Counted from the stretch's first letter, positions 44,438-49,774 are shown. The stretch is DNA of 49,775 bases from Planctomycetota bacterium (GCA_038227875.1 JBBRPR010000062.1:1-49775), one strand, 5' to 3'. The notes: generated by a model not told the origin, from the letters alone. Numbers and translations: made by a program.

Positions 44438-47095
44438 GTGGAAATTGTTTATTGCGACAGCTGCGGCGCACGTGTTCCTTCCGGGGAACTCGCGGCCGCA
44501 CGTGGCAATGATGGCAAGGTTCACTGTTCCACATGTGCTCCGCGCGTCCGTCGCGGGAGTGCCATCGTGGCCTCCGTGATTCAGCCTGAAAAGTTGATGC
44601 AAGGCAGGAGTCCGGGGAACGGCACGCCGGCGGTGAAAAGTCCTGCGCCCACGTCGGGCGACATTAAATTCTATTTCTGCGAGACCTGTGGCAAGCGCAT
44701 CACCGATCGCCAGATTCTCGAAGGCCAGGGCCGCGACAAGAAACTCAAGGGTATCTTCTGCAGCGACTGCGCCGTCGGCGTGAACACAATGGAGTTCGAT
44801 GCCATCACCGAAGCCGATTTGCGCAACAAGCCCACCCGCAAGTCCGGCGGCATCGCAAAAGTGCCGTCGTCGGGATTCAAAGCGACCCAACTTGAAGCCC
44901 GGACCGATCACTCTCCAGCGAAGTCGAGCAAACCTGTGGCCGGGCCGGCGCCGGGGCAGGGGCCGTCGGCACTTCCTCCAGGGATCAAGCCATTTGCCGC
45001 GATGATCGCCGCCGCTGCCGCGCTGACCCTGCTCGGCGCTTTCGTTTTGTTTTCCAATGCCCACTCGCCCAAAAACGTCGCGAAAGTCGAGCCCGTAGCC
45101 AACGTGGAGAAGGAAAATTCCAACGCGCCACCCTTGGAGCCCATGCAAGGCCCGTTGCCGCCACGCGTCGATGCTCCGGCGGTCACGTCGACGTTGGCCT
45201 CGACGGCTATCAATGATCCCGAGGCCAGCGCCAAGGGCGCGTTCGACGCGCTGCAGCGTTTCGATGGACTCGCCGCCGACGACAACGCGGGACGGATCGA
45301 GCGCATTGACGCTTTTCTGTCGCAGCATGGCGACGCGATCATCTCCGGCCGGGCGCGAGCGCTGCGCAAGGAACTCGCGGCTGCGACGCCCAAGCCCGAT
45401 CGCGAAGCGGTGGCGAAGTCGGACTACGACACCATGGTCAAAAAAATCGGAACGCTTGAAAAGGGCGACAGCACTGGCCGACTGGCCCTCGTCGACGCAT
45501 TTCTGAAGGACCACGGCGACTCCGAAATGGCGTCCGCGGCCAAAACCCTGCGGGACGGCATTGCCGCGGTCGAGCAGTTCAACAAGACCCATGCGACCCT
45601 GCCGGGTCTGCCCGATCAGCCGCCTGGAACGACGACGTCGGCAGCAGAATTGCCGCAGACAAAAGTTGCGGATGGCGACGTCGCGACTCTGAAAATGATT
45701 CAACAGACGCTGGTGCCGTTGGCTCAATCGGACTTCCCCGCGGCGCTGCGGGCGATCGCGCAAAATCCGGATGCGACTGCCGAATCGCGCAACGCGCTGA
45801 AACTCGTGCTGGATGCGCTCCGAAAACGCGACGGCCTGTGGCGCGACGCACTGGTCAAAAACGTGGGGCATAAAATCAAGCTGGAGACGAGGACGGGAGG
45901 CGTTGAAGGCGTCGTGCTGGCCGTCGACGGCGACACGCTCAAGATCGAAAAGCCGCTGGTCATCAACGGAGCGACCATGGGTTCGGCGACCGTCCAGATT
46001 GCCGTCGGCGATATTCTGCCGGTCTCGCGGGAAGCGCTCGCACCGCTTCCTGCTCCCGCCGGCGACGAATGGATGGGACAGGTCCTGGGCGCGCTGGCCC
46101 GGCAGGATTTCGAAGCCGCGGACAAGGCGCTGACGCACTGCGACGGGCACGTGCTTTACGCCGCCATCAAGCAGTTGGAAGCGGCCGAACAGGGCGCCGC
46201 CCGCGAAGTCAAAGCTCAAACGCTGTGGAAGAAAGCGGAGGACCTCTTCGCCGCCAAAAACTGGAAAGCCGCGAAGCTCGTTTACGAAGGACTGCAACGC
46301 GATTTCGCCGCAACCGCGCTGGTCAAATACAATGCAGAGTCGCTCCAGAAACGGCTGGATGAGATTGAGACGACGCTGCTGGCCTCCCAGGCTGTCACGC
46401 TGGATCTGGGCGGCGTCAAATTGGACCTGATGCCGATTCCAGCCGGAGAATTCGAAATGGGCTCCAACGACGAGCCGAATGAAAAGCCCATCCACAAAGT
46501 CCGGATCACGCATCCGTTCTGCATCGGCAAGTACCCCGTGACTCAGGCGCAATACGAGAAGGTGATGGGCGTCAATCCCTCCCAGGTTAAAGGCGACAAT
46601 CTGCCCGAAGACCATGCGAATTACGATGACGCGAAGGAATTCTGCAAGAAGGCCAGCAAGCTCACGGGAAAGAACATTCGGCTGCCCACCGAAGCGGAAT
46701 GGGAATATGCCTGCCGGGCCGGAACGCGGACGAAGTACTACACGGGCGACAACGAGGCCGCTCTGGACCAGGCCGGATGGTATGACAAAAATTCCGGCGG
46801 CAAGCCGCGACCCGTCGGTCAGAAGAAACCCAATGCGTGGGGTCTGTACGACATGCACGGAATGGTGTGGCAGTTCTGCATTGATGGCTACGCCGCGGAC
46901 GCGTATTCCAAAACCACGGTCGACGACCCGGAGATTATAGACGGCAAGGAATGCGTGATGCGCGGGGGCGCTCGAACCAAGGGTGCGGCAACCTGCCGTT
47001 CCGCAGCGCGCGGCTCCATCTGGAGAAGCGACCGCAGCTTCTACGACGCTTACGGATTCCGGGTGGTGCTATCGGCGACGCCGGCAAAGAAATAA
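44438..47095 (+). CDS. Membrane protein with N-terminal zinc fingers and C-terminal FGE-sulfatase (SUMF1) domain
   Basis: CDSC..CSTC and CETC..CSDC, one TM helix, PAGEFEMGS, RLPTEAEWEYACRAG, PNAWGLYDMHG, YGFRVV. Confidence 0.9.
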   Translation: MEIVYCDSCGARVPSGELAAARGNDGKVHCSTCAPRVRRGSAIVASVIQPEKLMQGRSPGNGTPAVKSPAPTSGDIKFYFCETCGKRITDRQILEGQGRDKKLKGIFCSDCAVGVNTMEFDAITEADLRNKPTRKSGGIAKVPSSGFKATQLEARTDHSPAKSSKPVAGPAPGQGPSALPPGIKPFAAMIAAAAALTLLGAFVLFSNAHSPKNVAKVEPVANVEKENSNAPPLEPMQGPLPPRVDAPAVTSTLASTAINDPEASAKGAFDALQRFDGLAADDNAGRIERIDAFLSQHGDAIISGRARALRKELAAATPKPDREAVAKSDYDTMVKKIGTLEKGDSTGRLALVDAFLKDHGDSEMASAAKTLRDGIAAVEQFNKTHATLPGLPDQPPGTTTSAAELPQTKVADGDVATLKMIQQTLVPLAQSDFPAALRAIAQNPDATAESRNALKLVLDALRKRDGLWRDALVKNVGHKIKLETRTGGVEGVVLAVDGDTLKIEKPLVINGATMGSATVQIAVGDILPVSREALAPLPAPAGDEWMGQVLGALARQDFEAADKALTHCDGHVLYAAIKQLEAAEQGAAREVKAQTLWKKAEDLFAAKNWKAAKLVYEGLQRDFAATALVKYNAESLQKRLDEIETTLLASQAVTLDLGGVKLDLMPIPAGEFEMGSNDEPNEKPIHKVRITHPFCIGKYPVTQAQYEKVMGVNPSQVKGDNLPEDHANYDDAKEFCKKASKLTGKNIRLPTEAEWEYACRAGTRTKYYTGDNEAALDQAGWYDKNSGGKPRPVGQKKPNAWGLYDMHGMVWQFCIDGYAADAYSKTTVDDPEIIDGKECVMRGGARTKGAATCRSAARGSIWRSDRSFYDAYGFRVVLSATPAKK

Positions 47096-47169: not shown

Positions 47170-48483
47170 TTAGTACCGGTAGTGCTCCGGCTTGTACGGG
47201 CCTTCGGTGTCGATGCCGAGGTACTCTGCCTGCTTGGCGCTCAACTTGGTCAGCTTGGCGCCGAGCTTGCCGAGATGCAGACGGGCGACCTTTTCGTCGA
47301 GCTTCTTGGGCAGGATGTAGACTTCGTTCTTGTACTTCTTTTCGGTGCGGGTCTGCCAGAGTTCGATCTGCGCCATCACCTGGTTGGTGAACGACGCGCT
47401 CATCACGAAGCTCGGGTGGCCCGTCGCACAACCCAGGTTCACCAGGCGGCCTTCGGCCAGCATGATCAGCTTCTTGCCGCTCGGCCAGATCCACTGGTCG
47501 ACCTGAGGCTTGATTTCGATCTTCTTCAGCTTCTTGTCGTTGGTCAGGCTGGCGATGTCGATCTCGATGTCGAAATGGCCGATGTTGCAGAGGATCGCGT
47601 TGTCCTTCATCACGTCCATGTGTTCGCGGCGGATGATGTCGCAGCAGCCCGTGGTGGTGACGAAGATGTCGCCCTGCGGCGCGGCTTCTTCCATCGTCAC
47701 GACCTGGTAGCCTTCCATGCAGGCCTGGAGCGCGTTGATCGGGTCGATTTCCGTGACCAGGACGCGGGCGCCCTGTCCGCGGAGCGACTGCGCGCAGCCC
47801 TTGCCCACGTCGCCGTAGCCGCCGACGACGGCGATCTTGCCGGCCACCATCACGCTCGTGGCGCGCTTGATGCCGTCGAGCAGCGATTCGCGGCAGCCGT
47901 AGAGATTGTCGAACTTCGACTTGGTGCAGGAATCGTTGACGTTGATCGCGGGAACCTTCAGCGTGCCCTTCTTGACGCGTTCGTAGAGGCGGTGGACGCC
48001 GGTGGTGGTCTCTTCGGACAGGCCGCAAATGTCCTTCAACAACGCGGGATACTTGTCGTGGACCATGTTGGTCAGGTCGCCGCCGTCGTCGAGAATGATG
48101 TTCAAGCCCTTGCCGTCCGGCCAGTGCAGGGTCTGTTCGATGCACCAATCGAATTCTTCGGCGTTCATGCCTTTCCAGGCGAAGACCGCAATGCCGGCTT
48201 TGGCGATGGCCGCGGCGGCGTGGTCCTGCGTGGAGAAAATATTGCAGCTGGACCAGCGCACCGAGGCGCCGAGGTCAACCAGCGTTTCGATCAGCACGGC
48301 CGTCTGGATGGTCATGTGGAGACAGCCGGCGACGCGCGCGCCCGCCAGAGGCTTCTTGCCTTTGTACTCTTCGCGAAGGGCCATGAGACCCGGCATTTCA
48401 ACTTCGGCGATCGCGATTTCCTTGCGGCCCCATTCGGCGAGACTGAGGTCCTTGACTTTGAAGTCCTGTGTGGCGGTGGACAT
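47170..48483 (-). CDS. ahcY: Adenosylhomocysteinase
   Basis: [75 protein letters not shown] before ATG 48483. Confidence 0.98.
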
Positions 48484-48596
48484 TCGTGCTCCTTCCTCGT
48501 GCGGGTTAGATTTCAACACTTTACGAGAGAGACTGTACGTTGAGGGAGGAGCGCGGCCAACGGCGCGGTAGTTGATTAAGCGCAACTGACAGTTTA

Positions 48597-48672
48597 GTAG
48601 GGCGCCGTCGGCCGGGTGGAACTCCGGTCGTTTCGAGGCGCTACGCACTAGACGCAACGAAGCCGCTGCGTC
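48597..48672. repeat. GTAG...CTAC hairpin plus adjacent GC-rich hairpin
   Basis: GTAGGGCGCC...GGCGCTAC (48597-48644) and GACGCAACG-AAGC-CGCTGCGTC (48651-48672). Confidence 0.5.
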
Positions 48673-48709
48673 CCCAGTGACGTAAGAGGTTACTGACGGA
48701 GTTGGGCTG

Positions 48710-49054
48710 TCAGGGCGATTTGCTTTCAGGCAAGGAGGCCGAGTATTTTGGCGCGCCGTTGACTTTGAAAGCCGCGACGAGCTTTTCCGGTGAGGTTTTG
48801 GCGGAATCGAAGGTGACGTATGCCGTGGAATTTTTGAAATCGATCGAACACTTCAGGACGCCATCGCACTTTTTAAACGCGGTGACCACCGCGGGCGGGC
48901 AGTTGACGGGTCACGTCATCCCCGTGATCTTCAGCGGCACTTCCACAGCTTTGACGGCTGGCGCGACCGGCTCGGTGGCTGCATCGGCAGCATTGAGTTG
49001 GCATGAGAACACCGCGCCCAACATGAGCGTCAGTGCGAAACAGACTTTCAGCAT
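48710..49054 (-). CDS. Exported heavy-metal-associated (HMA/MerP/CopZ-like) domain protein, predicted selenoprotein (Sec48), 114 aa
   Basis: AAGGAG RBS; signal peptide; [58 protein letters not shown] continues the HMA pattern for 66 codons past the TGA at 48911-48913. Confidence 0.85.
48878..48893 (-). promoter_or_regulatory. Bacterial SECIS-like hairpin
   Basis: CGCGGT-GGTC-ACCGCG; stem starts 18 nt and loop 24 nt after the in-frame TGA. Confidence 0.75.
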
Positions 49055-49177
49055 TGTGTGCTCCTTCCCAAAGGTGAAGCTATAAACATAAGTGAATGGG
49101 CGGCGGATTGAACAAGAATCCGGCGTAGTTTTAAGTCCTACGTGCAACCCTGATACGTGCAACCGTGAAAAGTGGGC

Positions 49178-49774
49178 TTAAGCCTGTCCGCTTTTGTCTG
49201 CTTTTTCGACCGGCGGGTAGCGGAAGGGCTTCACGGGCTGGACTACCGGCGGCTGGACGCTCGGGGCTGTCCGGTTTTGTCCGCTTTTGTCCGCTCGTTT
49301 AGCGGCCAGCTCCACCTTCTCGGCGGCGATGTCGGCTCGGATTTTGGCGACGGCGGCCTCTTCCTGGGATTTCATCATCTTGAGCATGACGTCGGCCGGC
49401 GAGGGCCGGTGCATGGCGTTGACGAGTTTCACGTGTTCGTCGCGGTCGCGGTTGGCCTGCTCCTGGCGCTCGGCCTTCTTGTCGTTGTAGACGAATTCGC
49501 GCCAGGCTTGAGCTTCCTCGGCGCGGCGTTCGGCACGCTCTTCCTGCTGGAGCAGCTTCAGCGTCTGGATCACGAGGTAATCGGAAGCCTTGGGGTCTTC
49601 CAGGATGGCGCGGATGCGGTTGCGGCCGAGTTTCCGGAGCTCCCGGTTTTCGTGGGCGATTTCGGCGGCTTCGTCCTGCTGGAGCTTGCGGGCCAGGGCG
49701 TGGTGCTTGTTGAGTTCGGAGACGAACAGTTCTTCTTCGGCCCAGCGGCGGACGGTGCGCGGGTTGACGTCTAG
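49178..49774 (-). CDS. HTH-containing hypothetical protein, 5' end outside window
   Basis: Frame is open from the window edge: LDVNPRTVRRWAEEELF (HTH recognition helix), helical region, two ADKSGQ repeats; ORF track shows only the last 131 aa. Confidence 0.72.
   Translation of the reverse strand, partial: LDVNPRTVRRWAEEELFVSELNKHHALARKLQQDEAAEIAHENRELRKLGRNRIRAILEDPKASDYLVIQTLKLLQQEERAERRAEEAQAWREFVYNDKKAERQEQANRDRDEHVKLVNAMHRPSPADVMLKMMKSQEEAAVAKIRADIAAEKVELAAKRADKSGQNRTAPSVQPPVVQPVKPFRYPPVEKADKSGQA

Follow-up and report, generated by a model that had tools for sequence, protein, structure and literature searches.

A planctomycete gene with an in-frame UGA very probably encodes a small selenoprotein of the heavy-metal-associated domain type

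Introduction

Does a TGA triplet that stands in for the first metal-binding Cys of a small heavy-metal-associated (HMA) domain end a gene, or does it encode selenocysteine (Sec)? The question is posed by the minus strand of a 49,775-nucleotide stretch of DNA from a Planctomycetota bacterium (GCA_038227875.1, JBBRPR010000062.1:1-49775). This stretch, referred to here as the window, is the whole of one contig (C62) in a 9.3 Mb genome of 176 contigs that is 88% complete. An earlier note on this DNA had proposed that it hides a selenoprotein, an exported HMA domain with Sec as the first ligand. That core proposal is supported: selABCD are present in the genome, and both the TGA and the hairpin that follows it are kept in relatives. 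We place the probability at roughly 0.85 that a single intact gene at this locus encodes a small exported Sec-containing HMA protein, which probably binds a thiophilic metal outside the cytoplasm.

The gene and its in-frame TGA

The gene lies on the minus strand at 48710..49054 and, from sequence and translation, holds 114 codons, one of them the Sec codon, plus a terminal TGA. Its ATG (49054-49052, minus strand) is preceded by GGAAGGAG, and a Shine-Dalgarno-like GGGAAGGAG of putative function is read directly 6 nt 5′ of the ATG (49061..49069, minus strand). Translation of the minus strand meets the internal TGA at 48913-48911, right after ...VPLKITGMT. This codon, the UGA proposed for Sec at residue 48 (48911..48913, minus strand), stands where GMTCxxC has its first Cys, within the loop that joins strand 1 to helix 1. 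Beyond it the frame reads PVNCPPAVV... and continues for 66 further codons to the terminal TGA at 48712-48710. The earlier note had described both the interruption at this Cys and the open frame leading to a stop at 48710, and sequence and translation confirm the two, coordinates included. A scan for promoters and terminators turned up neither a promoter-like site nor a minus-strand terminator belonging to the gene, and a search of sequencing runs had no RNA run among the matches listed.

If the TGA were a true stop, the locus would be a pseudogene, a sequencing error or a pair of small genes (a 47-residue peptide and a 59-residue HMA fragment begun at an internal GTG), and gene callers yield exactly such fragments. 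Lack of read support for the TGA had been named as a possible refutation, and contigs of four sequencing runs were compared. The contig assembled from the run that is probably the source (X1) spans the internal TGA and has no variant, the contigs of two other runs (X2 and X4) stop short of 48911, and a further run (X3) gave no alignable contig. Coverage of the window copy's TGA by the contig of that one run leaves a true stop some room, yet the C-terminal fragment by itself would be missing the first strand of the fold (strand 1) as well as its metal loop.

Relatives with the same in-frame TGA

The read-through protein was used for a six-frame search of 17 genomes of one Planctomycetota family, and the matches were then translated. 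At the column of the first Cys in G-M-x-C, 13 genes have TGA; they come from 10 of these genomes and 6 genera, a count of relatives within one bacterial family that overstates the number of independent events. Two Sec-type genes each are found in G011, G003 and G002, and one each in G000 (the window's genome), G010, G012, G013, G014, G004 and G006. Identity to the window protein ranges from 33 to 52%, and the protein sequence is conserved on both sides of the TGA. The gene can be aligned over its full length across the 13 Sec-type genes and one Cys-type gene. The latter (L031/P0152, in G008) has TGT at the Sec column, giving C-P-V-N-C-P, and is without the hairpin; the long-form Cys proteins P0153, P0155 and P0167-P0170 are without the AVVTA stretch that encodes it. 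The homologue comparison suggested in the earlier note has thus yielded TGA together with the hairpin in 13 genes, and Cys forms that have no hairpin. Two other candidates, L040 and L042, each flagged with '1 TGA', were dropped: they are N-terminal C-x-x-C HMA domains in open frames of 810-815 aa, with the TGA 3′ of the domain.

This pattern bears on both ways in which the TGA might not encode Sec. A true stop is highly improbable, as the same TGA is kept across the 13 genes and 6 genera with conserved in-frame sequence on either side, and homologues have Cys at the Sec position. Alternatively, TGA might be reassigned in this lineage, or read as a standard amino acid such as Trp, Gly or Cys. 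Nothing specific favours this explanation, although an open frame cannot by itself tell which residue is inserted. It is the least credible of the readings considered, for TGA is also the terminal stop in 6 of the 13 Sec-type genes (the window's gene and 5 of the other 12), and a codon that ends these genes has not been reassigned. Judged from the aligned relatives, the internal TGA is very probably a real Sec codon and the gene an unannotated selenoprotein.

A longer version of the protein was also seen. This form, of 200-226 aa, joins the HMA domain to a conserved C-terminal domain of ∼100 residues (L039/L069, G002:C199:1832-2197; P0153, P0155 and P0167-P0171). The copy in G002 is of the Sec type (G-M-M-U-N-N-C), and the metagenome long forms are of the Cys type (C-N-N-C or C-R-N-C), without the AVVTA stretch.

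Decoding machinery

Complete Sec machinery is encoded in the window's genome. The tRNA-Sec gene (selC) scores 71.5 bits in Rfam against a cut-off of 47, and ARAGORN reports it as SeC with anticodon tca. selB (307 bits, or 343 bits with the C-terminal part in the same 672-aa frame), selA (530.7 bits) and selD (301.6 bits) are all over their curated cut-offs. A search for the four genes had been recommended, and all four are in the same genome. More broadly, 14 of the 17 family genomes have selA over its cut-off, among them 9 of the 10 genomes with a Sec form. In the tenth, G010 (79% complete, 1320 contigs), selA is present only as a fragment at a contig end. These findings argue further against reassignment of TGA, as does a SelB-type hairpin with an fdhF-like GGUC loop after each internal TGA examined.

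The selD gene has an unusual setting of its own. It lies inside a 750-aa open frame (G000:C10:152410-154248; L018, L098), the N-terminal part of which matches the pyridine-nucleotide-disulfide oxidoreductase region of the MerA model; the sequence suggests an oxidoreductase-SelD fusion. A MerA-like reductase (376 bits, under the cut-off) is encoded ∼2 kb downstream of this frame, at C10:156121-157449.

The downstream hairpin

The SECIS core is a hairpin at 48878..48893 on the minus strand, with a 6-bp stem and a GGUC loop (48884-48887), overlapping codons 54-59 (P-A-V-V-T-A). Its arms are CGCGGU (48893-48888) and ACCGCG (48883-48878), the loop GGUC runs from 48887 to 48884, and the whole falls at +18 to +33 after the TGA. 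The earlier note's perfect 6-bp GGUC hairpin 18-33 nt downstream is thus exact, at 48893-48878. Its remark that the E. coli fdhF SECIS loop contains GGUC also holds, as read from the MG1655 fdhF gene. SelB needs and contacts the G-U of a SECIS loop.

On the window sequence by itself, the hairpin is statistically only mildly unusual. It is present in both the minimum-energy and the centroid fold, but the 76-nt segment that carries it folds no better than shuffled sequences (z = 0.2). The window holds 1481 TGA triplets, counting any frame on both strands, and 59 of them are followed, at a distance of 9-26 nt, by the start of some perfect 6-bp hairpin. The loop has GGTC in 4 of those 59; two of the four turn out to be the hairpin described here, and the remaining two fall in stop-rich frames. 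An Rfam search over 48600-49200 gave no relevant family at E <= 10.

It is the comparison with relatives that lifts the hairpin beyond chance. In the DNA alignment of the 13 Sec-type genes, the six pairs of the core form in every gene and all carry the core G-U-G-G-U-C-A/G, which the Cys form L031 is without. Pair 24/39 is GC in 7 genes, AU in 4, CG in 1 and GU in 1; pair 27/36 is GC in 8, AU in 3 and CG in 2. Since both pairs join third codon positions, these changes are synonymous as well as compensatory. The covariation score is 0.364, neither this score nor the percentage paired is matched by any of 500 column shuffles, and sliding the 3′ arm by 1-3 columns lowers the score to 0.014-0.12. 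Beyond the core, pairing is patchy: only 6 of the 13 genes can form pair 22/41, and only 4 pair 23/40. Three pair types at each of two positions would still be hard to obtain without selection for pairing, even given the kinship of the sequences compared.

Codon choice provides a second line of evidence. To control for saturation of synonymous sites, codon use was tabulated at every column in which 11 or more of the 13 Sec forms have the same residue. The two loop codons are invariant (V56 GTG and V57 GTC, 13/13 each), as opposed to fourteen other conserved residues with synonymous choice, among them G45, T47, K61, K62, G65, V66, D83, P84, K86 and T87, which use 2-4 codons each. C52 is encoded by TGC in all 12 Sec-type genes that have Cys there. 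At the protein level, the stretch A-V-V-T-A-F-K-K is near-invariant among Sec forms and lost in Cys forms, where its counterparts are A-V-L-A-E-A-L-K-K (L031) or T-N-V-Q-M-A-F-K-K and others (the long Cys forms). A stretch kept where Sec is used and gone where Cys replaces it is what a SECIS embedded in coding sequence would predict. The compensatory changes and frozen synonymous sites also count against a true stop.

Predicted export, fold and proposed metal site

Residues 1-22 (48989..49054, minus strand) form a predicted signal peptide, with MLK at the start, a hydrophobic core and LNA before the predicted cleavage site. The N-terminus is basic and hydrophobic in all 14 aligned members, and the Ala corresponding to A22 is invariant, in an AxA-type signal-peptidase-I site. 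The protein would be exported by the Sec pathway and cleaved by signal peptidase I after A22. A lipoprotein had been raised as a possibility in view of 'VFSC' in the window protein, and this reading was dropped. The Cys is not conserved among the 14 members, which makes a lipid anchor unlikely, and the invariant A22 site is found in all 14 instead. Conservation of the N-terminus makes a soluble exported protein more likely than a lipoprotein.

The HMA domain (48767..48931, minus strand) covers residues 42-96 by Pfam, within a folded core of residues 36-107, and its second ligand would be C52 at the start of helix 1. The profile test proposed earlier bore this out: the read-through product matches PF00403 over residues 42-96 with 36.4 bits (E 7e-9), above the gathering score of 24.8. 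An AlphaFold2 model computed from the 14-row alignment has a pLDDT of ∼90 over residues 40-110 and leaves residues 1-27 unstructured. The modelled elements (E36-44, H52-61, E66-72, E77-83, H89-99 and E105-107) follow the beta-alpha-beta-beta-alpha-beta order of a ferredoxin-like fold. The model puts U48 on the loop that follows strand 1 and C52 at the beginning of helix 1, the two ligand positions of HMA proteins. In Foldseek comparisons against the PDB, MerP ranks first (1osd, 40% identity, E 2.9e-6; 1afi, 39%), followed by copper chaperones and ATPase HMA domains. There were 29 PDB chains at E <= 0.001, and every chain among the matches listed is an HMA domain.

Ligand positions are kept across the family and the canonical spacing is not. 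Instead of M-x-C-x-x-C, the window protein has M-T-U-x3-C, relatives have U-x2-C or U-C, and the Cys form has C-x3-C. The earlier note's U-x3-C spacing therefore stands for the window protein and fails as a universal trait, since U-x2-C and adjacent U-C also occur. Its 'extra Cys pair' (CDGVLKC) did not survive comparison as a family feature: of the 14 members, 7 have C63 and 2 have C70. The U-C dipeptide (G-M-G-U-C-D-K...) belongs to a paralogue, L041/L068 (G003:C30:146038-146352, minus strand), whose hairpin is 6 nt nearer the UGA.

A different reading of the U...C pair accepts a real selenoprotein and makes the pair a redox centre, which might form a selenenylsulfide and exchange or reduce periplasmic thiols or selenium compounds. 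A spacing that varies between U-x3-C, U-x2-C and U-C would be unusual for a precise metal site. Still, a redox role is unlikely: metal-binding HMA proteins account for the fold and for the best matches in both sequence and structure, and Sec and Cys fall at the exact positions of both metal ligands of MerP and CopZ. We know of no thiol oxidoreductase with an HMA fold.

Genomic neighbourhood

The gene stands beside S-adenosylhomocysteine hydrolase (ahcY, 47170-48657) on the same strand, and the unassigned ORF on its other side is cut by the contig end. Across the 13 related loci, neighbours vary between genera and include no mer or cop gene and no conserved metal-related partner. The earlier note's statement that merT and copA are absent from the surroundings is correct for the window locus and for the related ones. 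In the 88%-complete genome as a whole, there is no MerT match and no MerA over the cut-off, the best MerA-like match scoring 376 bits against 454. This lack of metal-handling neighbours, and of MerT and over-threshold MerA, is a further point for the redox reading.

The only recurring neighbour in the 13 related loci, found at three of them and absent beside the window's copy, encodes a HEAT-repeat protein. It is 527-535 aa long and lies directly upstream on the same strand (L084:2323-3903, L085:2283-3884 and L088:724-2328), an arrangement that suggests a possible operon with the selenoprotein gene. At a single locus, in a MAG with two copies of the gene, an oxyanion-type redox cluster lies on the opposite strand downstream of one copy (L086:4431-8308); it comprises a SLAC1/TehA-type anion channel, a Rieske protein, a 4Fe-4S dicluster protein and a molybdopterin oxidoreductase. 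The window itself also holds, on the plus strand at 44438-47095, an 885-aa ORF whose C-terminal part is an FGE-sulfatase (formylglycine-generating-enzyme-like) domain; toward the N-terminus it has repeated C-x-x-C pairs along with a predicted membrane segment. The 811-aa antisense ORF that overlaps it is probably spurious.

Distribution, database records and literature

A profile of the 14 genes separates the family clearly from other HMA domains. In the order (20 genomes), no member falls below 109.6 bits, and the highest-scoring HMA domain after them reaches 60.8 bits; the unpublished genome G019 contributed to this order-level search only one weak generic HMA row. In 401 sampled genomes of the phylum, nothing outside the family scored above 64.5 bits with this profile. 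Three of six weak outside-family matches are exported HMA proteins with in-frame TGA at ligand positions. A pattern scan of one genome per species, spanning 185,579 species, matched 112 stretches, of which 9 encode relatives, all in Planctomycetota MAGs.

Related arrangements occur elsewhere in the phylum. In other Planctomycetota families, two proteins have U-x3-U motifs encoded with two in-frame TGAs and carry long C-terminal extensions: L081 (G045:C159:4008-4286, minus strand) and L083 (G229:C18:33935-34225, minus strand), the motifs being G-M-T-U-A-V-G-U-P-P and G-M-S-U-G-Q-G-U-P-P. L079 (G042:C37:8202-8501, minus strand) has U-x3-C in the form G-M-T-U-G-K-G-C-P-P. The downstream hairpins of all three loci are unlike the GGUC type.

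In public protein sets, the family is present mostly in truncated form. A single-sequence search among proteins of near length in a set of 5.8 billion found no homologue at E <= 1e-5, so a profile search was required. The latter returned 20 proteins at E <= 1e-10 among 8000 candidates scored. Of these 20 best relatives, 11 are C-terminal stubs of 59-139 aa that start 1-7 residues past the Sec position; the others are seven full-length Cys forms and two generic exported C-G-G-C HMA proteins. The stubs bear ordinary names. The L029 stub is 'MAG: heavy-metal-associated domain-containing protein [Planctomycetota bacterium]' at NCBI, two stubs are named as CopZ by JGI, and JGI's name for the L041 stub is 'copper chaperone CopZ'. 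Truncation by annotation pipelines had been anticipated, and the Sec copies in public protein sets are indeed headless C-terminal stubs. A profile search of a 1.84-billion representative library gave 33011 matches at E <= 0.001, and the best 150 were multi-HMA proteins whose repeat scores add up.

The earlier note had cautioned that HMA or MerP-like selenoproteins already figure in surveys, and HMA-type ones are indeed catalogued in models and reviews. The consulted part of the 2008 GOS survey lists a MerP selenoprotein, a MerT-like protein and a UxxC P-type ATPase (PMC2398784). In the portion of a 2026 review of the prokaryotic selenoproteome that we drew on, NF041115 (UxxU), MbdU, an ATPase and MerT are listed, and a term search of that text gave no occurrence of 'MerP' or 'Planctomyc' (PMC13188914). 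A 2022 review has, in the sections consulted, a similar listing of HMA-type selenoproteins, and the Haft 2022 preprint, in the part used here, describes other metal-related selenoproteins. Table S9 of a planctomycete genome paper (PMC4807772) contains no HMA selenoprotein. No description of this family was found in the full-text literature on selenoproteins with HMA or heavy metal-associated domains. The family is thus new to the literature as found, and its kind, metal-binding selenoproteins of the HMA type, is already known and makes no new class.

Proposed function

We propose the following course of events. At UGA-48, SelB carrying Sec-tRNA(Sec) would bind the GGUC-loop hairpin 18-33 nt downstream, Sec would be inserted, and translation would then run on to the terminal TGA at 48710. 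The signal peptide would probably be cut after A22, leaving a mature protein of ∼92 residues with a single MerP-like HMA domain. In its predicted metal loop, the selenolate of U48 would be joined by the thiolate of C52, which sits in the first helical turn of helix 1. Outside the cytoplasm, the protein would most likely bind or buffer a thiophilic metal, e.g. Hg(II), Cu(I), Ag(I) or Cd(II), and possibly pass it on to a partner. A function as an extracytoplasmic metal binder, buffer or shuttle is inferred because the fold and ligands point to it, with no conserved metal-handling neighbour to narrow it.

The chief competitor remains the redox centre, a reading helped by the consulted part of the 2026 review, in which the majority of the bacterial selenoproteins catalogued are redox proteins that carry UxxC-type motifs (PMC13188914). 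A more ambitious extension of the metal-binding reading is possible, and we hold it only tentatively. The family may be a Planctomycetota-specific, uncatalogued clade of exported HMA selenoproteins whose ligand geometry varies freely inside a single orthologous group (U-x3-C, U-x2-C and U-C, with U-x3-U relatives elsewhere in the phylum). Working apart from mer and cop operons, it would use its selenolate outside the cytoplasm to trap or shuttle thiophilic metals, e.g. Hg or Cu. If true, selenium would be used here for metal ligation and not for redox catalysis.

Several consequences follow for annotation and for selenium biology. Because the Sec copies in databases are headless stubs, downstream analyses miss the gene together with its Sec residue and signal peptide, and the selenoproteome of these uncultured Planctomycetota is undercounted. 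With AVVTAFKK, frozen Val codons and covarying synonymous sites, the family offers a clean example of SECIS constraint in coding sequence. It also adds Sec as a putative metal ligand in an exported protein, and its Sec/Cys pairs and varying ligand spacing amount to a natural series on Se versus S in soft-metal binding.

Comparison with known systems

The closest known system is MerP (TIGR02052; 1osd, 1afi). The two share a signal-peptide-bearing single HMA domain of ∼90 mature residues with two soft ligands, one in the loop and one at the start of helix 1, and MerP is both the best NCBIfam match and the best structure match (39-40% identity). Here, however, the first ligand is Sec in U-x3-C, whereas MerP has Cys in C-x2-C. 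The protein scores 49.8 bits against the TIGR02052 cut-off of 92.55, and its gene has no mer context, with no merT found and no merA over the cut-off.

Among catalogued selenoproteins, the UxxU metal-binding (seleno)protein NF041115 is likewise a small HMA-type metal-binding selenoprotein and the second-best NCBIfam match (45.1 bits). The present protein is under the 95-bit cut-off of that model and differs in having one Sec in place of two, x3 spacing and a signal peptide. The MerT/CopZ fusion-like selenoprotein NF045683 is matched only at the HMA end of its model, with 40.3 bits against a cut-off of 375. Transporter-fused HMA selenoproteins, as listed in the GOS table (PMC2398784) and the review tables consulted, also have Sec for the first Cys of the HMA motif. 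Those are cytoplasmic domains on membrane transporters, whereas this protein is a free-standing domain with predicted export. The name of the GOS selenoprotein 'Mercuric transport protein MerP' (PMC2398784) suggests a MerP-like selenoprotein, but that entry, in the part of the survey consulted, comprises a pair of identical read fragments, each 33 residues long, which have G-T-U-C and share nothing of this family's signature; it is listed with 0 Cys homologues.

For the RNA element, the closest counterpart is the E. coli fdhF SECIS. Most members here are without an extended lower stem reaching back to the UGA, in which they differ from fdhF, but they have in common with it the apical GGUC loop and a short G+C-rich stem downstream of the UGA. 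The fdhF loop lies at +19 to +22; the loops found here, at +24 to +27 in x3 forms, +21 to +24 in x2 forms and +18 to +21 in the U-C form, bracket that position.
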